A DNA stretch of 64,000 bases, taken from assembly GCA_964461025.1 (NCBI GenBank), contig CAYWSE010000001.1:56414-120413 (forward strand). The letters are read 5' to 3'. This DNA comes from an uncultured Sphaerobacteraceae bacterium. GTDB taxonomy: Bacteria; Chloroflexota; Chloroflexia; Thermomicrobiales; UBA6265. A program made the translations under genes and the position numbers. Below the pieces are notes generated by a model. The model did no database searches. It was not told the DNA's origin and saw nothing but the letters and a program-made list of their open reading frames with translations. This document shows, piece by piece, positions 4,297-56,035 of this stretch (position 1 is its first letter; each line of letters begins with the position of its first letter).

Positions 4297-5094
4297 GTGC
4301 CGCGCAAACGTCAATCCGCGCCATCGTCGAAACGCACTGCCACGCCGGCGCAATCGAACCCGGAGCGTCTTCTCGCCGCCCTGCAGATCGAAGGGCGCAA
4401 CATCGAGCTCTATCGCACCGCGCTGACTCATCGCTCCGCCGCCGGCATTGCCTTCACCGGCGACTATCCCTCCAATGAACCAAACGAGCGTCTCGAGTTT
4501 CTCGGCGATGCCCTGATCGGCGCCTATTCCGCTGACGAGCTCTATCGCCGCTTTCCGGACGAACCCGAAGGCATCCTCACCCGGCGGCGCACCGCCATCG
4601 TCCGCACCGAGCAGCTCGCCGCCTGGGCCCAGGAAATCGATCTCGATGACTACATGTATCTCGCTCCGGGCGAGCGTGCTTCCGTCAGTGGCCGCGACCG
4701 CATCCTCGCCGGCGCTTACGAAGCGTTAATCGGTGCGATCTACCTCGACCGAGGATCCCGCATCGCCAGAGCATTTTTCACCCATCAGCTTCGTCGCGAT
4801 CTCGATACGGTTCTCGCGGGGGTGGAAACATCCAACCCTAAGGGCCGCCTCCAGGAGATCACCCAGAATCTCTTCCGCCGCGCTCCCGCCTATCGCACCA
4901 TCGACGCACAAGGCCCCGCACACGCCCGAAATTTCACCGTGGAAGTCCGCTTCGACGGCGGAGTCCTCGCAACCGGCGAAGGCTCCAGCAAACGATCGGC
5001 GGAAGAAGCTGCCGCCACCGCCGCCCTCACCCTCATCGACGACCAGGGCGTCGGTGTTCTATCCCCCCGCTCCCTTCCCCGCACGCTCGATTAA
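4297..5094 (+). CDS. rnc: ribonuclease III
   Basis: RNase III signature ERLEFLGDALIG and EALIGAIYLD. C-terminal dsRBD (NPKGRLQEITQ...GEGSSKRSAEEAAA). GTG 4297 is chosen as the first in-frame start after the upstream stop. Confidence 0.9.
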   Translation: MPRKRQSAPSSKRTATPAQSNPERLLAALQIEGRNIELYRTALTHRSAAGIAFTGDYPSNEPNERLEFLGDALIGAYSADELYRRFPDEPEGILTRRRTAIVRTEQLAAWAQEIDLDDYMYLAPGERASVSGRDRILAGAYEALIGAIYLDRGSRIARAFFTHQLRRDLDTVLAGVETSNPKGRLQEITQNLFRRAPAYRTIDAQGPAHARNFTVEVRFDGGVLATGEGSSKRSAEEAAATAALTLIDDQGVGVLSPRSLPRTLD

Positions 5095-5196: not shown

Positions 5197-5379
5197 GGTC
5201 ACGTCTGCGCTGCATCTCCACTCGTTCTCGCTTTCTCCCGCGTCAACGGTCACTAAGCCCGTGATTTTCAATCGCGGGCGGATCAATTGGGCAACAGCGG
5301 CCAGCGCCAGCCCGCCGAACATGGCAGAATATGAACCCCGGCGCCGCGCCGGATTGACCAGATCAGGAGGTATGGGGAA

Positions 5380-6435
5380 GTGGCCAGACTGTTCGACCAG
5401 CTGACCATCTTCGGTGGCAATTCCAATCCTGGTCTGACCGCCGAGATTTGCGACTATCTCGGCCTCCCACAGGGCCGCGCCGAGGTCTTCAAATTCAGCA
5501 ACGACAACACCTTCGTCCGCATCGGCGAAAGCGTTCGCGATCACGACGTCTTCGTCGTCCAGTCCTTCGCTAATCCCATCAACGACTCGATCATGGAACT
5601 CCTCATCATGATCGACACCCTCAAACGAGCCTCGGCCGGCCGCATCACCGCCGTCATTCCCTATTTCGGCTACGGACGCACCGATAAGAAGGACCAGCCC
5701 CGCGTTCCGATCACCGCCCGCCTCGTCGCCAAGCTGATCGGCACATCGGGCGCCGACCGCGTCCTTTCGATCGACCTTCACGCCGGGCAGATTCAGGGCT
5801 TTTTCGACATTCCGGTCGATGAAATGACTGCCATGCCCCTCCTCTGCCGCTATTTCCAGCAACTTCGCCTCGAGCGCCCGGTGGTCGTTTCGCCCGATCT
5901 CGGCAACACCAAACGCGCCCGAAACTTCGCTGAGTTTCTCGATGCCCCCCTCGCCATCATCGAAAAACGCCGTGTCGGAAACGCCGATCGTTCCGAAATT
6001 CTCAACCTGATCGGCTCCGTCGAAGACGCGCAGGTCGTGATCATCGACGACGAAATCGACACGGCTGGATCGATCGCCCAGGCGGCGCAGGTCTGCTTCG
6101 AACAAGGCGCCGCCGAGGTCTACGCTGGTTGCACGCACGCCGTTTTCTCTGGTCCGGCCCTCGAACGCCTCGAAACCAGCCGCATTCGCGAGGTCGTCAT
6201 TTCCAACACCATCGCCCATCCACCGACTCGCCGGCTGGACAAGGTCACTGAACTTTCCGTCGCCCCCCTTCTCGCCGAAACGATCGAACGCATCCATGCC
6301 GGCGCCAGTGTCTCGGCCGCATTTCGCTCGCCCGACGCCCTACCCGACAGTTTTCAGTCCCGCTTGCCTCTCTTCTCTCGCCTCAATGGCTTCGAGAGCC
6401 CGGTCCGCGAGCCAGTCGAGCACACCGGGACCTGA
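5380..6435 (+). CDS. prs: ribose-phosphate pyrophosphokinase
   Basis: LTIFGGNSNPGLTAEI...FSNDNTFVRIGESVRDHDVFVVQS, DLHAGQIQGFF and IIDDEIDTAGS. GTG start with AGGAGG 9 nt upstream. It has a ~30-aa C-terminal extension relative to typical Prs. Confidence 0.9.
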   Translation: MARLFDQLTIFGGNSNPGLTAEICDYLGLPQGRAEVFKFSNDNTFVRIGESVRDHDVFVVQSFANPINDSIMELLIMIDTLKRASAGRITAVIPYFGYGRTDKKDQPRVPITARLVAKLIGTSGADRVLSIDLHAGQIQGFFDIPVDEMTAMPLLCRYFQQLRLERPVVVSPDLGNTKRARNFAEFLDAPLAIIEKRRVGNADRSEILNLIGSVEDAQVVIIDDEIDTAGSIAQAAQVCFEQGAAEVYAGCTHAVFSGPALERLETSRIREVVISNTIAHPPTRRLDKVTELSVAPLLAETIERIHAGASVSAAFRSPDALPDSFQSRLPLFSRLNGFESPVREPVEHTGT

Positions 6436-7659: not shown

Positions 7660-7755
7660 ACCAATACCCCCGGTTTGACGCTAAGGGCCGCATACCGTAC
7701 GGTTGCCCCGCCATCTCGGCAAACGCGAACGAATCTGACAAGGGACTGAATCGAC

Positions 7756-8346
7756 ATGGTGCTCTCGGACGGCGACATCATTGCGGCGCTGGAAAGCGGG
7801 CGTATTCGCATCGATCCAGCCCCCGATCTCGCCGTTCAGCTCGGCTCGGTTTCGGTCGACTTTCGTCTCGGCACCACCTTCATGGTCTTCGAACACAGCA
7901 GGTACAGCTACATCGATCCCCGTCATCCACAATCGATCGGCGACGCCATGCGGACGATCGAAGTCGCTGAAGACGAACCCTTCATTATGCAACCTGGCGA
8001 CTTCGCCCTCGCCTCGACCATCGAGACGCTGGAACTCCCGGACGATCTCCTCGGTCGCCTTGAGGGTCGCTCCTCGATCGCCCGTCTTGGCATCACCGTG
8101 CATTCGACTGCCGCGGTTTTCGAGCCCGGCTGGATCGGCACCGCAACCATGGAGCTCAGCAATCTCGGCCGAATGGCCGTGGCGCTCTATCCCGGCATGC
8201 GCATTTGCGCGTTTTCCTTCGAAACCGTCAGTTCGCCGGTGCTCACTCCCTACAGAAAAAAGGTCAACAACAAATACGCCGGTCAGCTGACCCCACGTGC
8301 AAGCCTCCTGTCCGAAGAAAACCGGCTCGCCGGCAAGAACGTATGA
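7756..8346 (+). CDS. dcd: dCTP deaminase
   Basis: MVLSDGDIIAALESGRIRIDP, GRLEGRSSIARLGITVH and FEPGWIGTATMELSN. Confidence 0.9.
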   Translation: MVLSDGDIIAALESGRIRIDPAPDLAVQLGSVSVDFRLGTTFMVFEHSRYSYIDPRHPQSIGDAMRTIEVAEDEPFIMQPGDFALASTIETLELPDDLLGRLEGRSSIARLGITVHSTAAVFEPGWIGTATMELSNLGRMAVALYPGMRICAFSFETVSSPVLTPYRKKVNNKYAGQLTPRASLLSEENRLAGKNV

Positions 8347-10089: not shown

Positions 10090-10240
10090 CTCAGCGAGTC
10101 ATATTGACATAACTCTTTCTGCGTCGCTGATTCCGGGGGTATATCGCATAGTGGATAGCGCATCGGTTGGGGAAACGCCCACCATCCGCCACCGAATCTC
10201 CACTATCCACCCCGGCTCCCCATTTCCCGACCAACGGAAA

Positions 10241-10369
10241 TGTAGGCTCCGGCGCTCTGCCGGAGCAATCGACCGGAGGTCGATAACTGCGGCCACCTGC
10301 AACCAAGGTTGTGCTGGCGATGGAGTTGGTCGTGGTTTATGGCCCTCCGGCAGAGCGCCGGGGGTTACA
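10241..10369. mobile_element. REPIN/MITE-like element copy 1 (129 bp, ~25-bp terminal inverted repeats)
   Basis: The termini are TGTAGGCTCCGGCGCTCTGCCGGAG ... CTCCGGCAGAGCGCCGGGGGTTACA. The body is near-identical to 51479-51620. Confidence 0.7.
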
Positions 10370-10652
10370 TTCGCGGAGCCCCGGCCATTAGGGACGAACT
10401 AGCGGTGCGCCTAGAATAGTGTGTGACTCGGGAATCATCCGACCATCCACTATTTACCATCTACTATCTACCGCGGCACAAATGCCGAGCCCCCTGTTGC
10501 AGCAGGGGGCTCCGCGGGGGTCTTTCGCAACGATTGGCGAGGGAAGGGGGAAGCCGCTCGCTGCGTTGCTTCCATCCTACAGTTGCCCTCCAGTCAAGAT
10601 GCGTGCTGAATGGATAGAGCATTGGGTCCGTTCGGACCTGCCTTCCTCTATG

Positions 10653-11354
10653 TCAGCGAGTACCTCCGCCTTCATCGCTCGTGGCCGTCTTCCGCCGGTC
10701 GGCTTCATACGACCGCATCATCGCCAGCAACACCTGATCGATGAAGTCATCGATACCAATGAACAACCGCGCCGCCCGTCGCGCCGGCAGATTTTCCTCT
10801 TCGATCACACCCAGCACCGCCCGCACCGTCGGATACCGAAAATAGAGAAACGCTTCGATCGTTTCTCCCGGTCCCAGGCCTGCCTGTCCACCCGACCGGC
10901 CATAGTAGTCACCGATTTCCCGGCCCTCTGTCAGCAACTGGGCGCGCTCCCGCTGATGCCCCGTCGTCGCCGCATACCGAATCGCCAGATCGACCAGTCT
11001 TCTCCCCAGTCGCCGGTGTTCTTCCTGCTTTTCCGCTCCAAACGACTGGTACCACTGACGGCTGCGCGCTTCGTTCAGATAGTCGTCTTCATATGCCGAC
11101 AGCGAACGGTCCGTCAGTCGCTGCCGGCTCACTCTCGATTTCTGCGGTTTCTTGGCATCCCCGGCCACCAGCGAGCGCAAATCTTCTTCCAGGTAACGCC
11201 GGTGACCGCCCGGCGTCAAAAAGGCCGGTACGCGTCCCTCATCGGTCCACCGTCGCAATGTCGACTGATCGACGCCCAGAAACGCGCAGGCATCGCGGAT
11301 CGTCATCCACCGAGGTCCAGAGCCGGTCGATCCTCCCTGATCGCGTTCGCTCAT
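10653..11354 (-). CDS. HTH DNA-binding protein (excisionase/MerR-type N-terminus) with C-terminal sensor-like domain
   Basis: WMTIRDACAFLGVDQSTLRRWTDEGRVPAFLTPGGHRRY is a typical excisionase-family HTH. I could not assign the C-terminal ~170 aa. Confidence 0.65.
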   Translation of the reverse strand: MSERDQGGSTGSGPRWMTIRDACAFLGVDQSTLRRWTDEGRVPAFLTPGGHRRYLEEDLRSLVAGDAKKPQKSRVSRQRLTDRSLSAYEDDYLNEARSRQWYQSFGAEKQEEHRRLGRRLVDLAIRYAATTGHQRERAQLLTEGREIGDYYGRSGGQAGLGPGETIEAFLYFRYPTVRAVLGVIEEENLPARRAARLFIGIDDFIDQVLLAMMRSYEADRRKTATSDEGGGTR

Positions 11355-11416
11355 CCTCTCGCTCCGTCCAGGCCACGGCGATTTTCGCTCTCTCCATAGC
11401 CCATCGATCGGTCTCC

Positions 11417-12859
11417 CTATCGCGATGTCTCCAGAGCCTCGCGAATCGCGATCAGCTGCGAGCGCAACACCGCGTCCTCGAGCAGCTGCGCTTCGATCTT
11501 CTCGATGCCATGCATTACCGTGGTGTGATCTCGCCCCCCGAGCGCCCGGCCGATATCCGCCAGCGACGACGCCGTTCCCTCCCGAATCATGAACATCGCG
11601 ATCTGCCGTGGAATAACGATTTCGCGCGACCTGTTCCGGCCGCTCATCGCCACCACATCGACCTGAAAATACGACGCCACCGCCTTGATGATCTCCTCAG
11701 GCGTCAGATCATCCCGCCGCATCCCTGCCTTGCCGCTCGACAATGCTTCGATAGCCAGGGAAAGAGTGATCGACCGGTTCCCCACCCGGGAGTAGGCGAT
11801 CACCCGGTTCAATGCTCCCTCCAGCTCACGCGTGTTCGTCTTGTCCCGCTGCGCGATGTACTCGATCGCGTCATCCGGCACCCGCGCACCCAGCTCCTCC
11901 GCCTTCGTGCGCAGAATCGCCATGCGCATTTCGAAATCGGGCGGTTGCACATCCGCCGTCAGGCCACCCTCGAACCGCGACCGTAGCCTGTCTTCCAGAC
12001 CCGCAATCGCGTGTGGCGGCCGGTCGCTCGAAATCACCACCTGCCGGCCACTCTGATGCAGCGTGTTGAATGTGTGGAAGAACTCCTCCTGCGTGCTGTC
12101 CTTCCCGCCGATGAACTGAATGTCATCGATCATCAACAGATCGATCGTCCGGTATCTGGCCCGGAAATCGTCCATGCGCTGCGCCCGCAATGACTCGATC
12201 AGATCGTTGGTGAACTTCTCCGACGAGACATAACAAATGCGAAGATCGGGTTTGTGCTCGAGCGCCCGGTGCCCGATCGCATGCAGCAGATGGGTTTTGC
12301 CCAGTCCCACTCCGCCATAGATGTAAAAAGGGTTGTATTGCTCGCCCGGATGCTCGGCCACCGCCAGCGACGCCGCGTGCGCGAACATGTTTGACTTGCC
12401 AACCACGTACGTCTCGTACACATACCGTTGATTCAGACCCTGGAACGGATTCGATGCGAGCTCGAGTTGCTGCGACGCCGCCAGGGGAGTGGGCTGACGC
12501 CGCACCGTCGTATCGATCTTCCGTCGCCCCACCGACACAGCACCGTTCGGGGCTGACTTCACTGGTTTCTCTTCGGTCGAAACAACCGTCTGGTTCGCCA
12601 ATTGATCGGCAGCGCCCACGGTGAACTGCACGGTCACCGGCCGTCCCACAATGTCGGAAAGTACCCGCTGGATTTCCGTGGCGTAACGAGACTCCAGCGT
12701 CGACGCGCCGAACGTGTTGGGCGCCGAAATCGTTGCGACATCATTCGCGAATGCGACCAGCGATGTCGGACGCAGCCAGTTTTCAAAAGCGTTTTTACTC
12801 AACCGCACCTGCATGTCACCAAGCACGGCTTGCCACAACTGTTTGGCCTGAAGTTGCAC
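11417..12859 (-). CDS. dnaA: chromosomal replication initiator protein DnaA
   Basis: NPFYIYGGVGLGKTHLLHAIG (Walker A), DDIQFIGGK, and C-terminal domain IV (ADIGRALGGRDHTTVMHGIEKI). Confidence 0.96.
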   Translation of the reverse strand: MQLQAKQLWQAVLGDMQVRLSKNAFENWLRPTSLVAFANDVATISAPNTFGASTLESRYATEIQRVLSDIVGRPVTVQFTVGAADQLANQTVVSTEEKPVKSAPNGAVSVGRRKIDTTVRRQPTPLAASQQLELASNPFQGLNQRYVYETYVVGKSNMFAHAASLAVAEHPGEQYNPFYIYGGVGLGKTHLLHAIGHRALEHKPDLRICYVSSEKFTNDLIESLRAQRMDDFRARYRTIDLLMIDDIQFIGGKDSTQEEFFHTFNTLHQSGRQVVISSDRPPHAIAGLEDRLRSRFEGGLTADVQPPDFEMRMAILRTKAEELGARVPDDAIEYIAQRDKTNTRELEGALNRVIAYSRVGNRSITLSLAIEALSSGKAGMRRDDLTPEEIIKAVASYFQVDVVAMSGRNRSREIVIPRQIAMFMIREGTASSLADIGRALGGRDHTTVMHGIEKIEAQLLEDAVLRSQLIAIREALETSR

Positions 12860-13094
12860 GGGAGTCAGACCTTTTTTGGGTTACCACTTTGCCAGCCAAA
12901 GTGGATGCGGGGTCCCTGACCTTAGGTCTGTCACTCTACCACGCCAGACCCCGCTTTTGGTGAGACCAAAGGTGCAATTCCTCCAGTCTCAGTCTGGCGC
13001 ATCACCGGTCCCACCCCGATCCGGGAATCTGTCACAAAACCGTTGTTTCCTGTCACTGCACATGATAGAGTACCGGCGCGACAGGTTCACCACA

Positions 13095-13300
13095 TCATCT
13101 TGATGTGATGACGCAAGTGGGAATCCGGTGAAATGCCGGAGCTGCCCCGCAACGGTAACGAGGAACGACGCCGTCATTCGCACCGGGTCAGAACCCGGCA
13201 AGCGACGGTTGGTAGGAATCCCGGCTCTCCCGCCGGTCCGCCTCGCAGCCCGAACACCGGCCTGACGCTCGCGCCGCGAGGGCGCGATGTGAACCCGGGC
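13095..13300 (+). promoter_or_regulatory. cobalamin (B12) riboswitch in the nrdA leader
   Basis: The core GGGAATCCGGTGAAATGCCGGAGCTGCCCCGCAACGGTAA matches the conserved GGGAA..GGTGAAA..CC..GCCCCGCAAC.GTAA segment. A B12-box-like GCACCGGG...CCCGGCAAGCG follows. Boundaries are approximate. Confidence 0.78.
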
Positions 13301-13535: not shown

Positions 13536-16385
13536 ATGGAAATCCGCGAACTCGGTACCGGCGACGCCGTGTCCGGAACACTCGACGAATCACCATTCGT
13601 GCTGAAAGCCGGAAATGTCACCAAGCGCGACGGACGCTCCGTCTCGCCCGACATCACCCGCATCGCCAACGCGATCGAAATGGCCTTTCGAGCCGAAGTC
13701 GGTGTGCCCTTTCCTGACCCGCTGCCCTCCGCCATTCACGACCGCACGCTGTCCATCACCAATCAGGTCGTCGAATCGCTGAACTGCCAGTTCGATTCCG
13801 CCCAACCACTTCATGTCGAAACGATTCAGGACGAAGTCGAACAGCAACTGATGGCTGCGGGCGCTTTCGGCGTTGCCAAACGCTACATTCTCTATCGACA
13901 GGCCCGCTCCCAGCTCCGCCAGGAAGCCGCGATCCGCGTCATCGACGATCGTGGCCAGGAATTGCAGCTGCACCGAGCCGTTATCCGCTCCTGGGTCGAT
14001 GAGGTCTGCGCCGGTGTCGACGAAGCCGTCTCGGCCCCCGCCATCGTCGAAGATGTCCTGAACGGCATCTATCCCGGTATCGCCCTCGCCGAGGTGCAGC
14101 AGCTCGTTCTTTACGCTGCCCGCACCCGCATCGAGCAGGACCCCGCCTGGTCGAGCGTCGCCGCTCGCGCTTTGTTGAGCACCCTCTACGCCGAAGTCTT
14201 CGGCCGCCGCGTCGCCATCGCCGACGCTCCCGGTCTCTATGCCGGCGCCTTTTCGTTCTATCTCCGCGACGCCGTCGCCGCCGAGCTCCTCAGCGAAGAG
14301 CTTCTCTCCTACGATCTCGATCTACTCGGCGCCGCGCTGCATCCGGAGCGCGATCTCGATTTCGCCTACCTCGGACTCCAGACCCTTTACGACCGCTACC
14401 TGATCCGCAACGGCGACCGGCGCATCGAGCTCCCCCAGATGCTCTGGATGCGCGTCGCCATGGGATTGGCCATGAATGAAGACGACGCCAACCAGCGCGC
14501 AATCGAGTTCTACGAGCTCCTCTCATCCCTTCGCTTCTGTTCTTCGACGCCGACGCTTTTCAACGCCGGCACCCGTCATCCGCAACTCTCCTCCTGTTAC
14601 CTCACGACCATCGGCGACGACCTCGACCAGATCTTCTCCGGCTTGCGTGACAACGCCCTCCTCTCCAAGTGGAGTGGGGGACTCGGCAACGACTGGACCC
14701 GCGTTCGCGCTCTCGGTAGTGGCATCAAGGGCACCAATGGCCGCAGCCAGGGCGTCGTTCCCTTCCTGAAGGTCGCCAACGACGCCGCGGTCGCGGTCAA
14801 CCAGGGCGGCAAACGCAAGGGCGCGGTCTGCGCCTATCTCGAGACCTGGCATCTCGATATCGAAGAGTTCCTCGAACTGCGCAAGAACACCGGCGACGAC
14901 CGCCGCCGCACCCACGATATGAACACCGCCAACTGGGTGCCCGATCTCTTTATGCAACGAGTCAAGGAGGACGGACCGTGGACCCTCTTCAGCCCCGACG
15001 ACGTCCCCGACCTGCACGATCTCTATGGCAAGGCCTTCGCCGCCCGCTACCAGGCCTGCGAAGCCGCAGCGGCTCGCGGTGAAATCCGTCTCAGCCGAAC
15101 GGTGCGCGCCGTCGATCTCTGGCGCAAGATGCTCACCGCTCTCTTCGAAACCGGACACCCCTGGATCACCTTCAAGGACCCCTCGAACGTCCGCACCCCG
15201 CAGGATCACACCGGCGTCGTCCACAGCTCGAATCTCTGCACCGAGATCCTTCTCAACACCAGCGACGACGAAGTTGCCGTCTGCAATCTCGGTTCGGTCA
15301 ATCTCGCTGCCCACATCGTTGATGGCCGCCTCGATCTCGAATCGCTGCACACCACCATCCGCACCGCCGTGCGCATGCTCGACAACGTCATCGACATCAA
15401 CTTCTACCCGATCCCGGAAGCGCGCAACGCCAACCTTCGCCACCGGCCAGTCGGACTTGGCCTCATGGGCTTCCAGGACACCCTTTACGCGCTTGGGTAT
15501 TCCTATGCCTCGGAGGAAGCAGTTGCCTTTGCCGGCCAAAGCATGGAAGCGATTGCCTGGTCCGCACTCCTCGCCTCATCCGAGCTCGCTGCCGAGCGTG
15601 GCGCCTATGAGTCCTATCGCGAATCGAAATGGGACCGCGGCCTTCTCCCTCAGGACACCATCCAGCTCCTCAGCGACGAGCGCGGCTCGCCAATCGACGT
15701 TCCCATCGAACCAACTCTCGATTGGGAGGTTGTGCGCCGTTCGATCCAGCGACATGGCATGCGCAACAGCAACGTCATGGCCATCGCCCCCACCGCGACG
15801 ATTTCCAACATCACCGGCGTCAGTCAGTCGATCGAACCCGCCTTCTCCAATCTCTACGTCAAGAGCAATCTCTCCGGCGAGTTCACCGTCGTCAACTAAT
15901 TCCTCGTCCGCGATTTGAAGGAGCGCGGTCTCTGGGACGCCGAGATGCTCGACGATCTCAAGCATCACGACGGCTCCCTTCAGGAGATCGACCGCATCCC
16001 GCAAGACCTCCGCGACCGCTACCTCACTGCCTTCGAAATCGACTCATCCTGGCTGCTCGCCGCCGCGGCCCGCCGCCAGGTCTGGATCGACATGGGCCAG
16101 TCGCTCAACCTCTATTCCGCCGGCGCCAGTGGTCGCAAGCTCAACGACATGTACCTCTCCGCCTGGGAACAGGGGCTGAAAACCACCTACTACCTGCGCA
16201 GCAACGGCGCGACCCAGGCCGAGAAGTCGACATTGGACATCAACGCCCGCGGTCTTCAACCCCGCTGGATGAAGTCCCGCAGCGCCTCCGCCGACGTCGT
16301 CATCGACCGCGAACCGACCATCGACGACTACCCCATCGGCGCCTCCTGCTCCCTCGACGGCAGCGACTGCGAGGCCTGCCAATGA
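13536..16385 (+). pseudogene. nrdA: class Ia ribonucleotide reductase alpha subunit interrupted by one in-frame TAA (15897-15899)
   Basis: ATP-cone-like N-terminus (VTKRDGRSVSPDITRIANAIE) and catalytic core (SSCYLTT, SNLCTEI, AIAPTATISNI). The sequence reads ...GEFTVVN-TAA-FLVRDLKERGLWD... and continues in the same frame to TTYYLRS and the C-terminal Cys-rich tail CSLDGSDCEAC. ATG 13536 has GGAGG 7 nt upstream. Confidence 0.88.
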
Positions 16386-16492: not shown

Positions 16493-16533
16493 TTCCCACC
16501 GAAACGATGCTCTATCAACGAGGAATCCAATCA

Positions 16534-17562
16534 ATGACCGCGACAATTACACCTAATCCCGCCCAGGAAAAACGGCTCATCAACTGCAGCGCCGTCGACG
16601 TCAACCAGCTCATGCCCCTCAAATACGACTGGGCCTGGGAGCACTACCTCAACGGCTGCGCCAACCACTGGATGCCCACCGAGGTCCCTATGGCCGCCGA
16701 CATCGCCCTCTGGAAGAGCAACAACCTCACCCCGGACGAGCGCCTCGTCATCATGCGCAACCTTGGCTTCTTCGCCACTGCCGAGAGCCTCGTCGCCAAT
16801 AACCTCACCCTGGCCATCTTCCGGCACGTCACCAACGCTGAATGCCGCCAGTACCTCCTTCGGCAAGCGTTCGAAGAGGCGATCCACACCCACACCTTCC
16901 ATTACATCGTGGAAAGTCTCGGCCTCGATGAAAACGAAGTCTTCACCATGTATCACAACATCCCCTCCATCGCGGCCAAGGACGCTCTGGAGATGGAGCT
17001 CACCGCCGCTCTGATCGATCCCAACGCCACCACCGCCACCACGGAAGGAGCCCAGCGCTTTCTCGAGAACCTCATCGGCTACTACGTGATCATGGAAGGC
17101 ATCTTCTTCTATGCCGGTTTCGCCATGATCCTCTCCTTCCACCGTCAAAACCGCATGACCGGCATCGGCGAGCAGTTTCAGTACATCCTCCGCGATGAAA
17201 CAGTCCATCTCAACTTCGGCATCGACCTGATCAACGGCATAAAGCAGGAACAGCCCGAGCTCTGGACGAGTGATTTCCAGAACAACGCCGTCGAGCGCGT
17301 TCGCGAAGCCGTCGAGCTCGAAATTGCTTACGCTGCCGACTGCCTGCCACGCGGCGTCATGGGTCTCACCGCCGATCTCTTCCGCGACTACGTCCAGTAC
17401 ATCGCCAACCGCCGCCTCGAGCGCATCGGCTTGCCCCGTCAGTACAACAGCCGCAACCCCTTTTCCTGGATGAGCGAAACGATCGATCTCCGCAAGGAGA
17501 AGAACTTCTTCGAGAGTCGCGTCACCGACTATCGCTCCGGATCCTCCCTGACATGGGACTGA
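16534..17562 (+). CDS. nrdB: class Ia ribonucleotide reductase beta subunit
   Basis: Ferritin-like di-iron motifs [17 protein letters not shown] and [12 protein letters not shown] 16534. Confidence 0.92.
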
Positions 17563-17951
17563 TCGTGTACGAAAAACTGAACCGTCATCCTGAACGGCAC
17601 GGAGCATCAGCGGAGTGCAGTGAAGGATCTCGTGCCGCGGCAACCGCCGCAGCGGCACGCTCCCCACAGCGCCCCTCGAATCACCGAAGCGATGCTCAAG
17701 GCGAGGCCTTCGGACAGAGTGGTTCGCGGCAACCTCTGCGCATCAACTGCCCCGAATGCGGCACACTCTCCACCGCCATCCGTTCCCGACCAGACGGCGT
17801 CCCTCGCTTCGTCTGCACGGAAGGCCACATTCTGACCCTCCACTCCGCCTCCGGCCTCGCCGAGATCACCGGCTTTCTCGCCGACCTCGCCGATTCCGTC
17901 GGGCGCATCCGAAGCGCCAATACAGAACCTGTCCAACCCACACAAGACTGA
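17553..17951 (+). CDS. hypothetical small protein with zinc-ribbon-like CPEC...C..H motif
   Basis: The ATG overlaps the last 10 nt of nrdB. The C-terminal two thirds have strong GC3 bias. Motif [29 protein letters not shown]. The N-terminal third looks low-complexity, so the true start is uncertain. Confidence 0.4.
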
Positions 17952-17963
17952 GGACCTCTCTCC

Positions 17964-20255
17964 ATGGCACAAGCAACAATCGCCGGATATCCACGCATCG
18001 GCCGAAACCGCGAACTCAAATGGGCCACCGAGAAATACTGGTCAGGCAACATCGACGCCGCCACACTGCTCGAGACTGCCCGCGCTGTCCGCCACGACAA
18101 CTGGGCGATCCAATCCCGGGCCGGCATCGATCTCATTCCCATCAACGATTTCTCCCATTACGACCAGATGCTCGATATGGCCGCCCTCGTCGGCGCCGGT
18201 CTCGAGGACTACGTGGCGCCGGGCGCCATGGTCGACCTCGATGCCTATTTCCAGATGGCGCGCGGCAACGATGCCGGCGGACCTCCTCCCCTCGACATGA
18301 CAAAGTGGTTCGACACCAACTATCACTACCTGACACCGGTGATCGACGCCAACCAGCCCTTCCGGATCGCTTCTGAGAAACCCTTCACCGAGCTTTCCGA
18401 AGCAACTACCGCGGGTCATCGCGCCAAGGTCGTCCTGATTGGGCCAATCACCTTCCTGAAGCTGTCGAAAACCCGGCAGGAATCCGATCCCCTGGATCTC
18501 CTCGACGCCCTCCTGCCGGTCTATGCGGAGGTCATCGCCCGTCTCGCCGCCGGTGGCGCAGAGTGGATCGAGCTGCAGGAGCCGTCGCTCATTGCCGGAC
18601 ATGGCGCCGGACTCGAACCGCAAACCGAACGCGCCTACACCGCCATTGCCGCGGCAAAGGACGCTGCAAAACTGCTGCTTCACCTCCCGTTCGGCGACCC
18701 CGGCGACCTCCTCGACACCCTGATCGGACTACCGGTCGATGGGCTCGGCTTTGACTTCACCCGCAGCGACAATCTTGCCGCGCGAATTGCCGCGACCTCC
18801 TGGCCAGCAGACAAAACTCTTGCCGCCGGCGTCGTCGACGGTCGCAACATCTGGATCAACGATCTCGACAGCTCGTTCGCAACACTGCAACAGCTTACCT
18901 CCGTCACCGGCACTGACCAGCTGATAGTCACCTCGTCCTGTTCACTTCTCCACGTGCCGCATGACGTTCGTCTGGAGACCGGACTCGATCCAGAGCTGCT
19001 CTCCTGGTTGGCGTTTGCCGATCAGAAGCTCAACGAAATCTCCGCCCTCACCGCGGCGCTCAACAGTTCCCTCGAATCGGTTCCCGGATCAGATGCATAC
19101 CGCCGGGCGCGTGCATCCATGGCCAGTTCGCAGCGACGCCGCAACCCTGCCGTCCGCGAACGCATCAGCGCAGTTCACGACCAGCAGCGCCGCCGGTCGT
19201 CGCCATATGCGGCGCGACAGGCGATTCAGGCGACAGAACTCGGTCTGCCCCTGTTGCCAACCACGACCATCGGCTCCTTCCCACAAACAAACGATCTCCG
19301 CAAGGCACGTCGCCAGCTCGACGCCGGGACTCTCGGCCAGTCCGCCTACGACGAAATCATCGCCGCGTCGATCGCCACCACGATCGCCGAGCAGGAGAGC
19401 CTTGGTCTCGATGTCCTCGTTCATGGCGAACCCGAGCGCAACGACATGGTTCAGTACTTCGCCGAGCAGATGGAAGGATTCGCCTTCACCCGGAACGGCT
19501 GGGTACAGAGCTACGGCACGCGATGCGTCCGCCCGCCCATCATCTTCGGCGACGTCTCCCGTCCTGCCGCCATCTCGGTCCATTGGTCGCGATATGCCCA
19601 ATCGCTGACCAGCAAACCGGTCAAGGGCATGCTCACCGGTCCGGTCACCATGCTCAACTGGTCCTTCGTCCGCGACGATCAACCCCGCGCCGAAACCTGC
19701 GCGCAGATCGCTCTCGCCATCCGCGACGAAGTCGACGATCTCGTCGCCGCCGGTCTCAAAATCGTCCAGATCGACGAACCAGCCCTGCGCGAAGGGCTTC
19801 CGATCGACCACGCTCATTGGACGGCCTACCTCGAATGGGCAACCGCCTGCTTCCGGCTCGCCTCATCCAGCGCGCCAGACCTTGTCCAGATTCATACGCA
19901 TATGTGCTACAGCGATTTCGGCGACATCATCGCGGCAATCGACAACCTCGATGCCGATGTCCTCTCGATCGAAAACACCCGCTCCGGCGACGAGATGCTT
20001 GCCGTCTTCAGTGACTTCGGCTACGAACGAGGCGTTGGACCGGGCGTCTACGATGTCCACTCGCCACATGTTCCGTCAGTGGATGAAGTCACAACATCGA
20101 TTCAGTCACTGACCCACCAGCTCGATGCTCGCCAGATCTGGGTCAATCCCGATTGTGGCCTCAAAACCCGCAAACCGGAAGAAGCGCACGCGTCGCTCCG
20201 CAACATGGTCACCGCCGCCAACGCGCTCCGCCCAACCATCACGACTGATTCGTAG
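17964..20255 (+). CDS. metE: cobalamin-independent methionine synthase (5-methyltetrahydropteroyltriglutamate-homocysteine methyltransferase)
   Basis: MAQATIAGYPRIGRNRELKWATEKYW, GSFPQTNDLRKARR, HTHMCYSDF and WVNPDCGLKTR. Confidence 0.96.
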   Translation: MAQATIAGYPRIGRNRELKWATEKYWSGNIDAATLLETARAVRHDNWAIQSRAGIDLIPINDFSHYDQMLDMAALVGAGLEDYVAPGAMVDLDAYFQMARGNDAGGPPPLDMTKWFDTNYHYLTPVIDANQPFRIASEKPFTELSEATTAGHRAKVVLIGPITFLKLSKTRQESDPLDLLDALLPVYAEVIARLAAGGAEWIELQEPSLIAGHGAGLEPQTERAYTAIAAAKDAAKLLLHLPFGDPGDLLDTLIGLPVDGLGFDFTRSDNLAARIAATSWPADKTLAAGVVDGRNIWINDLDSSFATLQQLTSVTGTDQLIVTSSCSLLHVPHDVRLETGLDPELLSWLAFADQKLNEISALTAALNSSLESVPGSDAYRRARASMASSQRRRNPAVRERISAVHDQQRRRSSPYAARQAIQATELGLPLLPTTTIGSFPQTNDLRKARRQLDAGTLGQSAYDEIIAASIATTIAEQESLGLDVLVHGEPERNDMVQYFAEQMEGFAFTRNGWVQSYGTRCVRPPIIFGDVSRPAAISVHWSRYAQSLTSKPVKGMLTGPVTMLNWSFVRDDQPRAETCAQIALAIRDEVDDLVAAGLKIVQIDEPALREGLPIDHAHWTAYLEWATACFRLASSSAPDLVQIHTHMCYSDFGDIIAAIDNLDADVLSIENTRSGDEMLAVFSDFGYERGVGPGVYDVHSPHVPSVDEVTTSIQSLTHQLDARQIWVNPDCGLKTRKPEEAHASLRNMVTAANALRPTITTDS

Positions 20256-33179: not shown

Positions 33180-34118
33180 CTAGAACATGGCCGTGCGGCC
33201 CGAGTACAGATAGTCTCGGGGCATCATGACACGCATCACGTGCGGACCGGGAGTGTTCGGCAAGACCTGGCACGCGCGGCCATCGGCGACCTGGGTTGCC
33301 ACGAAAAATGCCTCGGTCAGATCGGCGTACCCGAACTCGTCACAGAGCCAATAGCAGAGATCACGCACAGCGAGATTGAGTGCATCCTCCAAGTGTGTTG
33401 ACGACGCGATCACACCGATTGAATCTGGCGCCTCGATTCGCGGCCAGGTCATCCGCTCCGGCTTTCCCTTTCGGAGCGTCAGCGTCAGCGTCGTCTCTGC
33501 CCGGATTTCGATTCCGCCACCGCAGAACTCGCCATCCGCCTGTGCTGCATGAGCATCACCGATGTAAAAGTGCGCCCCCGTCACCCCAACCGGAAAGAGA
33601 AGCGTGTTCCCAGGCTTCGACTCGGGACAATCCATGTTTCCGCCCCACGGACTCGGATCGCCATGGCGTCCCGACTCCAGCGGAGGCGTGCACCCAAGGC
33701 AACCGATCATTGGGCGAACGGGAAACCGAATCCGGTCGTTGTAGTGAACCCACCCATCCCGGATATCGACAAACGTCGTCACCGGCTCGTCGAACCAATC
33801 GGGCTGCAGAAATGGCCACGTTCCAGTGAAGCCGGTCGAATCAGGAACGATCTCGTGAATGGTCACCGCCAGCACATCGCCCGGCTCGGCGCCGACCACT
33901 TCGATCGGGCCAGTCAGAGGCCCCGGAAACTTGCCCGCGTCCCGGTTCCGCCGAAACTCCGTGAGTCCAGCCGGCGTTGCCTGATCGGGATTCCGGACCT
34001 GCCCGGAGCGCGTATCCTCGGTTTCGATTACGATCGTCTCGCCCGATGCGATCGTCAAAATCGGCGCCGAAGGTTTCCGCAGGTCGTAGCCAAACTCTTC
34101 CAGTCTGATCCGTTTCAC
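33180..34118 (-). CDS. acetamidase/formamidase-family protein
   Basis: LTIASGETIVIETED, LTGPIEVVGAEPGDVLAV and GGNMDC. GTG 34118 is preceded by GGGGGA. Confidence 0.75.
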   Translation of the reverse strand: MKRIRLEEFGYDLRKPSAPILTIASGETIVIETEDTRSGQVRNPDQATPAGLTEFRRNRDAGKFPGPLTGPIEVVGAEPGDVLAVTIHEIVPDSTGFTGTWPFLQPDWFDEPVTTFVDIRDGWVHYNDRIRFPVRPMIGCLGCTPPLESGRHGDPSPWGGNMDCPESKPGNTLLFPVGVTGAHFYIGDAHAAQADGEFCGGGIEIRAETTLTLTLRKGKPERMTWPRIEAPDSIGVIASSTHLEDALNLAVRDLCYWLCDEFGYADLTEAFFVATQVADGRACQVLPNTPGPHVMRVMMPRDYLYSGRTAMF

Positions 34119-34162
34119 ATCTTTCCCCCAGGACTTTGTCGACTGATCGCCGAATTCGCCGA

Positions 34163-35074
34163 TCAATGAACCTCCCCGAGCGCGTTCCTCAGGTAGTCCA
34201 CCGAGAGCCGCTCCGGATCGTCTCCCTCCCATCTCGGTTCACCAAAGTGTTCCGGCCCGACCACACCTGCGTATCCGGCGGCGTCCAGGGCAGCCAGCGC
34301 CGCGATCAGATCGACTTCCCCATCGCCCGGCAAGACCTCTTCCGCCCTGGGCCACCGACCCGTCACATCTCGTAGCTGGGCGTGATGGACTCGCCCACGG
34401 AACTCGCTCGCCGCGGCTCGCACATCAGCTCCCATAATGTGCATGCCTGTGCAGAAGCACAGACCGTTGTGCGTGCTCGGGACCGCTTCCAGCAATCGCC
34501 GCGCATCATCGAGAGACGACAGGAGATACGGCCCATCCCACGCATCGCGCCGAAATGCGTGGTACTCCTCCATCCGCAACCCTTCTTTGAGAGCAGGGGT
34601 TCTCACCGCAGGTGGCAGACACCGCCATACAGGGTGACTGGCAATCCGTACATCAGTCGCCTCAGCCTCGTTCGCCATTTCACGCATAAACGCGAATAGC
34701 CCCTCCCAGTACCGGACCACATCGTCAGCATCCTCCGGATGGGGGAAATGCTGGTAATACAGCAACGTCCCAATCCCCGCCGTGCCCAGGGCCTCAAGTG
34801 TCTGGAGCTGCGCGTCAATCGCCTTCCGGTGACCAGCGGGATCGATCAGCAATCCGGGATTTCTCCCCGTCGCCCCATTTGCTGAATCGATCGCAATCCC
34901 TTCCGCCGCCAATGCGGAGCGCATCTCGCGAAGCACCGCCAGAGACGGCACACCCTCCTCCTGATAGCCGGGGATCGAATCGAGAAGGATGCAGACGTTC
35001 TGTAGATTGAGATTCCGGCAGCGCTCGATAATTGCGGGGACATCAGTGTCGTACACATAGAGCACGATCTTCAT
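34163..35074 (-). CDS. sugar phosphate isomerase/epimerase (xylose isomerase-like TIM barrel)
   Basis: The length, the alternating beta/alpha pattern and the C-terminal GPEH/E motif are typical of the family. This assignment comes from overall resemblance only. Confidence 0.65.
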   Translation of the reverse strand: MKIVLYVYDTDVPAIIERCRNLNLQNVCILLDSIPGYQEEGVPSLAVLREMRSALAAEGIAIDSANGATGRNPGLLIDPAGHRKAIDAQLQTLEALGTAGIGTLLYYQHFPHPEDADDVVRYWEGLFAFMREMANEAEATDVRIASHPVWRCLPPAVRTPALKEGLRMEEYHAFRRDAWDGPYLLSSLDDARRLLEAVPSTHNGLCFCTGMHIMGADVRAAASEFRGRVHHAQLRDVTGRWPRAEEVLPGDGEVDLIAALAALDAAGYAGVVGPEHFGEPRWEGDDPERLSVDYLRNALGEVH

Positions 35075-55169: not shown

Positions 55170-55907
55170 ATGCGCCAGAATCGGGAGTCGCTCCGGTACA
55201 GGGGATACGACTACACACATCCGAGCGCGTATGCGTTCACGGTTGTTGTCCGTGATCGTGCATGTCGTCTTGGACGAATACATGAGATGGTGTTCAAGGC
55301 AACTCTCGCAGGAGCAACCGTGCTCAACGTATGGGAGTCGCTGCCGAAGAGATTTCCACGCATCCTGCTGGATGCGTTCGTAGTCATGCCCAACCATATC
55401 CATGGGATTGTGTTTCTGGGAGGCACACCGATCGATAATCTGGACGATCTCGTCGACACAACGACCCCATCCGTAGCGTCGCCATTTGTGGCCATCGGCG
55501 CATCTGAGCAGAACGAATCCCAGACTCCACGAACACCGTCCGTAGCGTCGCCATTTATGGCGACTGATGCGTTGGCGATGAACGTTCCTCGAACCTTAGC
55601 GCCGTCTGGCGAGACAGTCGCCATAAATGGCGACGCTACAAAATCGGCTGCGGTACGCGGGCGACGACCTCCAGTTCCACCGGTCCGTGATCAGGCCATG
55701 CCAGCGCTCGGTGAGATCGTTCGTTCGTTGAAGGCCGCGTCAACGACAAGGATTCGCAAGGAAATCGATCCTCAGTTTGCATGGCAGGAAGGGTACTGGG
55801 ACCGCATCATCCGCAATGATGCCGAACTGGAGCGGTATCGGGCATACATCGAAAACAATCCTGCGCGTTGGGAAGAAGACAGGGAATACCTAAAGGGGGA
55901 TTGGTAG
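55170..55907 (+). CDS. REP-associated tyrosine transposase (RAYT, IS200-like) with extended linker
   Basis: YAFTVVVRDRACRLG N-terminus. HUH motif VVMPNHIHGIVFL. Tyr motif FAWQEGYWDRIIRNDAELERYRAYIENNP. An ~85-aa linker contains three family A REP sequences. Confidence 0.82.
   Translation: MRQNRESLRYRGYDYTHPSAYAFTVVVRDRACRLGRIHEMVFKATLAGATVLNVWESLPKRFPRILLDAFVVMPNHIHGIVFLGGTPIDNLDDLVDTTTPSVASPFVAIGASEQNESQTPRTPSVASPFMATDALAMNVPRTLAPSGETVAINGDATKSAAVRGRRPPVPPVRDQAMPALGEIVRSLKAASTTRIRKEIDPQFAWQEGYWDRIIRNDAELERYRAYIENNPARWEEDREYLKGDW
55472..55639. repeat. three family A REP units inside the RAYT coding sequence
   Basis: CGTAGCGTCGCCATTTGTGGCC at 55472-55493. CGTAGCGTCGCCATTTATGGCGAC at 55541-55564. 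The inverted copy GTCGCCATAAATGGCGACGCTAC at 55617-55639. Confidence 0.85.
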
Positions 55908-55935
55908 GAGATACCAACGGTCGATTGCGGGGTCA

Positions 55936-55953
55936 AGCGCCATTAATGGCGCT
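55936..55953. repeat. perfect 18-bp palindrome AGCGCCATTAATGGCGCT (family A-related)
   Basis: It is self-complementary, lies 29 nt after the RAYT stop, and shares the CGCCAT..ATGGCG core. Confidence 0.7.
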
Positions 55954-56035
55954 CGCTGCGGCTCACATACATTCCAAATACCCACCGACGGAATCGCACC
56001 ACTCGGCCCGACTACTCTAGTGAGGAGTAGGACGA

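Follow-up and report, generated by a model that had tools for sequence, protein, structure and literature searches.

A single in-frame stop codon in an otherwise intact ribonucleotide reductase gene behind a cobalamin riboswitch in a Thermomicrobiales-like genome

The stretch of DNA analysed here, referred to as the window, comprises 64,000 nucleotides of contig CAYWSE010000001.1 from an uncultured Sphaerobacteraceae bacterium (assembly GCA_964461025.1). Its forward strand carries a cobalamin (B12) riboswitch followed by nrdA, the gene for the alpha subunit of a class I ribonucleotide reductase (RNR), nrdB and metE (Table 1). By direct reading, the 949 codons of nrdA hold a single in-frame stop, a TAA that divides the gene into an upstream and a downstream piece; the letters around it are GTC GTC AAC TAA TTC CTC GTC CGC GAT TTG. 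An earlier examination of the same DNA without database searches (the sequence-only reading) had described the frame as open save for this one TAA and had placed a TTG at 15915 in the same frame, and both statements are borne out. The start codon of nrdA is preceded by GGGAGG, with a calculated pairing to the anti-Shine–Dalgarno sequence of -15.2 kcal/mol.

Table 1. Features of the nrdA locus, with positions counted from the first letter of the window.
Feature	Position	Strand	Basis or content
Cobalamin (B12) riboswitch aptamer, nrdA leader	13066..13279	+	RF00174, 77 bits (gathering 31.5), full model 1-189
nrdA, whole frame	13536-16385	+	949 codons, ATG 13536 to TGA 16383-16385
nrdA upstream piece, 787 codons	13536..15896	+	ATP-cone, all-alpha domain, about four fifths of catalytic barrel
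Premature TAA in place of a sense codon (GAA/GAG for Glu most likely)	15897..15899	+	Direct reading
nrdA downstream remainder, 161 codons + TGA	15900..16385	+	Last two barrel strands, Tyr-Tyr pair, C-terminal Cys pair
nrdB, intact, class Ic type	16507..17562	+	PF00268 positions 2-281/281
metE (cobalamin-independent methionine synthase), intact	17964..20255	+	PF08267 + PF01717, full length

The upstream piece matches the Pfam families PF03477, PF00317 and PF02867, the last over positions 1-423 of 523 (E 7e-156). It contains the three active-site Cys residues as well as the Asn and the Glu, with the motifs SSCYL (residue 352), SNLCTEI (residue 565) and VAVCNLG (residue 580). The downstream piece corresponds to positions 426-523 of 523 of the same barrel family (E 6e-24) and carries the motifs TTYYLRS (residue 883) and CSLDGSDCEAC (residue 938). 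Thus the nrdA frame encodes the Cys/Asn/Cys/Glu/Cys active site and, 3' of the stop, the Tyr-Tyr pair and also the C-terminal Cys pair. This is the arrangement that the sequence-only reading had proposed, and every motif that it quoted was located. The domain set of a class I alpha subunit is not contained in one polypeptide here, as the product ends at residue 787 of 949. The barrel profile runs collinearly over the stop, with zero inserted residues and the cut at profile position 424-425. This collinearity indicates that one codon was replaced, with no insertion or deletion, and that the two pieces are parts of one gene rather than open reading frames (ORFs) juxtaposed by chance.

The residue that the stop replaced was sought in an alignment of 120 database homologues, among the matches listed. 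The stop column is variable. Glu is found in 77 of the 120 sequences, which answers the question, raised by the sequence-only reading, of what orthologues carry after the VVN motif; elsewhere the column holds Thr, His, Asp, Ala, Arg, Pro, Gln or other residues. Its neighbours are nearly fixed, with Asn in 119/120 at position -1 and Leu in 119/120 at position +2. The closest relative is a protein 71% identical (P0003), encoded at loci L082 and L083 of two NCBI assemblies. Its gene has TTC ACC GTC GTC AAC GAG against TTC ACC GTC GTC AAC TAA in the window, so that the five preceding codons are identical base for base. Two further relatives have CAG and CAC at this column, and in 80 more distant loci the commonest codons are GAA (15) and GAG (14). 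Within the nrdA of the window itself, Glu is encoded by GAA 29 times and by GAG 20 times. In the closest solved NrdA, that of Pseudomonas aeruginosa (PDB 5IM3), the column is occupied by Pro807, and the downstream piece aligns to the C-terminal end of that protein (residues 761-963).

Taken at the level of the alignment, a Glu codon (GAA or GAG) is by far the best candidate for the ancestral state and Gln is possible; the simplest history would be GAA to TAA by one G-to-T change. Such a change would destroy a GAATTC site, and restriction-site avoidance or a methylation-linked miscall was considered for this reason and rejected: GAATTC occurs 15 times in the window, which shows that the sequence is not avoided.

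The nonsense lesion is confined to this one genome. Both the 787-residue product (P0001) and a 146-residue protein called from ATG 15945 (P0121) are singletons from one NCBI contig, and the other 119 homologues, among the matches listed, are all at least 852 residues long, nearly all of them 920-1,285. A scan of a genome collection with the upstream piece gave relatives at 56-61% identity, and in total 85 related loci were compared, 5 close and 80 more distant. The gene is uninterrupted in all five close relatives, and in 79 of the 80 distant loci a single uninterrupted alignment runs through the junction. The remaining locus (L004) shows an apparent stop at query residue 16, which probably lies 5' of the start of that gene and was therefore not counted, leaving 80/80 distant loci uninterrupted within the gene. 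In the metagenome collection, a codon-degenerate pattern for GEFTVVN-[TAA/TAG/TGA/TGG]-x-LV gave 0 matches with a stop at this column; with any codon allowed at the column, these flanks are found in 33 of the 85 loci, the five close relatives all being among them. An exact 32-mer over the junction with the first base of the stop left open likewise had no match in the metagenomes. The sequence-only reading had held that close relatives with the same split and two conserved frames would point to a functional split gene, and no such relative is found among the 5 close and 80 distant loci.

The coding sequence on both sides of the stop is that of a gene under constraint. Upstream, 189/189 invariant and 287/290 near-invariant columns are retained, and downstream 9/9 and 50/51, in agreement with the earlier claim that both sides are well-conserved NrdA. 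Identity to homologues is 0.755 upstream and 0.670 downstream of the stop, compared with 0.750 and 0.689 in intact homologue pairs, and the G+C content at third codon positions of the downstream piece is 0.87. The picture is that of a single lesion rather than of a decaying pseudogene, in which multiple lesions or relaxed constraint 3' of the stop would be expected. Since there is no decay 3' of the stop, the stop, if real, would be very recent. The sequence-only reading had offered four explanations and chosen none of them; recent pseudogenisation and a sequencing or assembly error are the two that keep most of the probability here.

The same observations bear on the possibility that the TAA is a base-call or consensus error and that the organism has a sense codon (GAA or GAG, for Glu) and a functional nrdA. 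A gene that is otherwise faultless, with its invariant residues kept on both sides and the ratio of N- to C-terminal identity found in intact pairs, is consistent with an error, as are the intact nrdB and metE, the occurrence of the allele in one assembly only and the fact that one substitution from GAA is enough. The quality of the window speaks against it. Each Pfam match in the 34 window ORFs that have one lies inside a single ORF, so that 0/34 are split by a stop, and the other junctions between ORFs in the same frame are ordinary gene boundaries. Four contiguous pairs of ORFs in the same frame were inspected as candidates for further split genes and rejected, as they are either shadow frames or neighbouring genes that each have a start. 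The otherwise clean window argues against a generally error-prone assembly and also against a genome in general decay. Substitution errors, moreover, are rare in short-read consensus sequences, and long-read errors are mostly insertions and deletions. We regard an error as a serious possibility, with a probability that stays below one half.

The matches in the Pfam-matched ORFs run near end to end in all but one case. This is an ORF for an FmdA_AmdA (acetamidase/formamidase) protein at 33183-34238 on the reverse strand, whose profile match falls into two fragments, the best stretch covering positions 208-275 of 373; the ORF may be divergent rather than damaged. Two stretches of the window hold no coding-like ORFs (1-1546 and 55170-56011), with G+C contents of 0.555 and 0.564 against 0.606 for the window.

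The structural setting of the stop was examined in a predicted model of the closest intact relative, P0003 (mean predicted local distance difference test score 74.9, predicted template modelling score 0.74). In this model a beta hairpin (780-785/788-793) leads straight into a helix (795-803), whose first residue occupies the stop column. Beyond it lie four helices, a strand (863-868), a further helix, a second strand (891-896) with the Tyr-Tyr pair, and a disordered tail. The break is thus placed at a strand-to-helix junction, ahead of two barrel strands. The 787-residue product would keep the substrate site; judged from the model, it would have lost the final two strands of the barrel together with the Tyr-Tyr pair and the Cys pair of the C terminus. 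In class I RNRs these two pairs relay the radical from NrdB and re-reduce the active site, respectively. Without the strands, the tyrosines of radical transfer and the cysteines of the redox shuttle, the truncated NrdA should, by the established class I mechanism, be inactive on its own.

A split alpha subunit is not without precedent, and a functional two-piece enzyme was therefore considered, in which translation stops at the TAA, restarts at TTG 15915 or ATG 15945 and yields fragments that assemble non-covalently. The split NrdA of phage Aeh1 is fully active, its fragments heterodimerizing unaided (PMC3045599), and at the present locus the break falls in a variable column where a strand gives way to a helix, with an in-frame TTG 15 nucleotides past the stop. 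The likeness to Aeh1 is that, in the large subunit of a class I RNR, essential residues are divided over two reading frames. The differences are larger. In Aeh1, the homing endonuclease gene mobE is inserted between the equivalents of Cys439 and Cys462, the pieces (NrdA-a, NrdA-b) are independently translated, and the tail peptides that they acquired are essential, with a 2,000-fold loss of activity in their absence (PMC3045599). The break described here is a point mutation about 95 residues before the Tyr-Tyr pair and is not conserved; no mobile element is inserted, there is no extra tail sequence, and the downstream piece has no start signal of its own.

The possible restart codons illustrate the last point. 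TTG 15915 has no Shine–Dalgarno sequence (+0.3 kcal/mol), and the -3.9 kcal/mol of ATG 15945 is near background, the mean for internal NTG triplets in nrdA being -3.1 kcal/mol. A restart at one or the other would drop 5 or 15 conserved residues, among them a Leu, a Leu and a Trp that are invariant in the family. The split is present in no relative, and the Aeh1 study itself reports 0 of 1,200 nrdA sequences as split (PMC3045599). Re-initiation at TTG 15915, offered as an option in the sequence-only reading, thus finds no support at the start site, among relatives or in the residues that it would sacrifice. A functional two-piece enzyme is very improbable in our estimate. Slightly less probable still is its most specific form, in which the TAA would be real, re-initiation 15 nucleotides on would be independent of a Shine–Dalgarno sequence and the C-terminal fragment would dock on the 787-residue core. 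If true, a point mutation would by itself have produced fragment complementation, with neither the mobile element nor the tails that the Aeh1 enzyme needs.

A full-length NrdA could also arise by programmed or tolerated readthrough of the stop codon or by reassignment of TAA, for which the perfectly preserved downstream frame is the sole support. Among the 51 large ORFs of the window about 6 close with TAA, in three cases followed by T (TAAT), which marks it as a normal terminator here, and UAA followed by U is, as Poole, Brown and Tate reportedly found in 1995, among the most efficient bacterial termination signals. The window is devoid of tRNA genes, the RNA around the stop folds no better than shuffled sequences (z = -0.84) and the stop is conserved in no relative. 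Readthrough, likewise listed as an option by the sequence-only reading, fails on these grounds, and we hold it to be the most improbable of the explanations discussed here. Even taken together, a two-piece enzyme and readthrough account for a very small share of the probability.

The sequence-only reading was right in calling nrdB intact, as is evident from the nearly complete match to its family profile and from an alignment, near end to end, with NrdB of Chlamydia trachomatis (PDB 1SYY, E 2.5e-163). Among solved structures, those nearest to it are from C. trachomatis (1SYY, 4D8F and 4M1I). NrdB has Phe131 at the position of the radical Tyr (F127 in 1SYY) and Glu93 at the first metal ligand (E89); entry 2ANI differs in having Tyr at the former position. 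Pairing of Phe and Glu marks class Ic, while Tyr and Asp are paired in classes Ia and Ib (PMC8463856). The label of class Ia given by the sequence-only reading is therefore not upheld: by its residues NrdB lacks the Tyr/Asp pair and has the Phe/Glu pair, and the RNR encoded here is of class Ic, Chlamydia type. The Phe/Glu pair, read from the sequence, is shared with the class Ic RNR of C. trachomatis (Mn/Fe R2c; 1SYY, 4M1I); in class Ic, a Mn(IV)/Fe(III) cofactor serves as radical initiator. Unlike the C. trachomatis RNR entry, the NrdA described here has one recognisable ATP-cone and lies behind a B12 riboswitch. The start of nrdB is probably ATG 16534, which is preceded by a Shine–Dalgarno pairing of -5.9 kcal/mol compared with -1.9 kcal/mol before 16507. 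The protein collection lacks the 351-residue product of the longer frame, and residue 20 is the first to align with the PDB entry.

The upstream riboswitch named in the sequence-only reading was confirmed with the Rfam model (Table 1), and a cobalamin riboswitch is also found 5' of the intact nrdA in 5/5 related loci examined. The closest relative (L082 and L083) has the same order, riboswitch-nrdA-nrdB-metE. In the interval between nrdB and metE, neither a terminator-like site on the forward strand nor a second riboswitch was found, suggesting that nrdA, nrdB and metE may form one B12-repressed unit, with two B12-independent enzymes behind a single riboswitch. This arrangement is reminiscent of nrdABS in Streptomyces, a class I RNR operon that a B12 riboswitch controls (Borovok et al. 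2006, as cited in PMC12528414). As far as that citing text describes it, in both systems an oxygen-dependent class I RNR operon has a cobalamin riboswitch in its leader; the Streptomyces operon differs in being of class Ia and in having nrdS as its third gene, where the present one is of class Ic and has metE after nrdB. A riboswitch on an operon of the Streptomyces type implies that, with B12 at hand, the cell turns to a B12-dependent alternative, and by this analogy a B12-dependent NrdJ encoded elsewhere in the genome, as supposed in the sequence-only reading, is a reasonable expectation.

The neighbourhood has several further features. The spacer between nrdB and metE (17553-17951, forward strand) has a conserved part at about 17745-17900 that encodes a small Cys-rich, zinc-ribbon-like peptide (...INCPECG...). 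It is conserved at the protein level in L082 at 4481-4947, a region that is partly N-masked (...VDCPICA...LLCPAGHELTL...GLDEVTRFLSDL). In loci L081, L084 and L085, nrdB is followed by biotin-synthesis-like genes instead of metE, and the spacer peptide is absent where such genes follow. On the other side, dnaA (11417-12859, reverse strand) lies divergently 5' of the riboswitch-nrdA leader, which probably places the window close to the origin of replication; no DnaA boxes of the Escherichia coli type (at most one mismatch) were found between 9 and 14 kb. The 1.3 kb downstream of dnaA (10090-11416) contain no coding-like ORF. Nearby intact genes of nucleotide metabolism are those for a deoxycytidine triphosphate deaminase-like protein (7750-8343) and a phosphoribosyl pyrophosphate synthetase (5335-6432), both on the forward strand.

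With the locus described in full, we lean towards the TAA being a real and very young loss-of-function allele that arose by a single-base nonsense substitution, a reading to which we give a little more than an even chance. The codon after Asn787, most likely one for Glu, would have become TAA by one base change, and the gene hit would be that of a class Ic alpha subunit, intact in all other respects, in a genome that is Chloroflexota-like (Thermomicrobiales-like). Translation would end at the strand-to-helix junction and give a 787-residue product that is presumably inactive. The null allele would be tolerated, since an operon behind a B12 riboswitch would be required only when B12 is scarce, provided that a B12-dependent reductase exists; encoded elsewhere, that enzyme would provide the deoxynucleoside triphosphates in B12-replete conditions. 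We infer that the base is genuine rather than miscalled and, by analogy with riboswitch-controlled class I operons, that the genome would hold such a back-up reductase.

Four considerations weigh against a real allele of this kind. A base-call or consensus error would leave just this pattern, a single lesion with constraint unrelaxed, and the allele is known from one assembly only. No second RNR is encoded within the 64-kb window. Finally, a null in so strongly conserved a gene could come to dominate a population only if it were near-neutral.

What lies at the junction looks like an ordinary one-base nonsense lesion and not like a designed split gene. It resembles the internal-stop pseudogenes and annotation artefacts of draft and metagenome-assembled genomes in having one nonsense codon, intact relatives and no compensating signals. 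Nothing material sets it apart from an ordinary internal-stop pseudogene; the target here is highly conserved and normally important, and there is no second lesion yet.

If the TAA is an error, the case amounts to an annotation warning only, as fragments of 787 and 146 residues stand as separate proteins in public collections. A useful by-product of the analysis is the corrected assignment to class Ic in a Chloroflexota-like genome, together with the operon context. If the nonsense allele is real, nrdA would be another conditionally dispensable gene that has been knocked out, which would suggest that the lineage has a steady supply of B12 and relies on a B12-dependent reductase.

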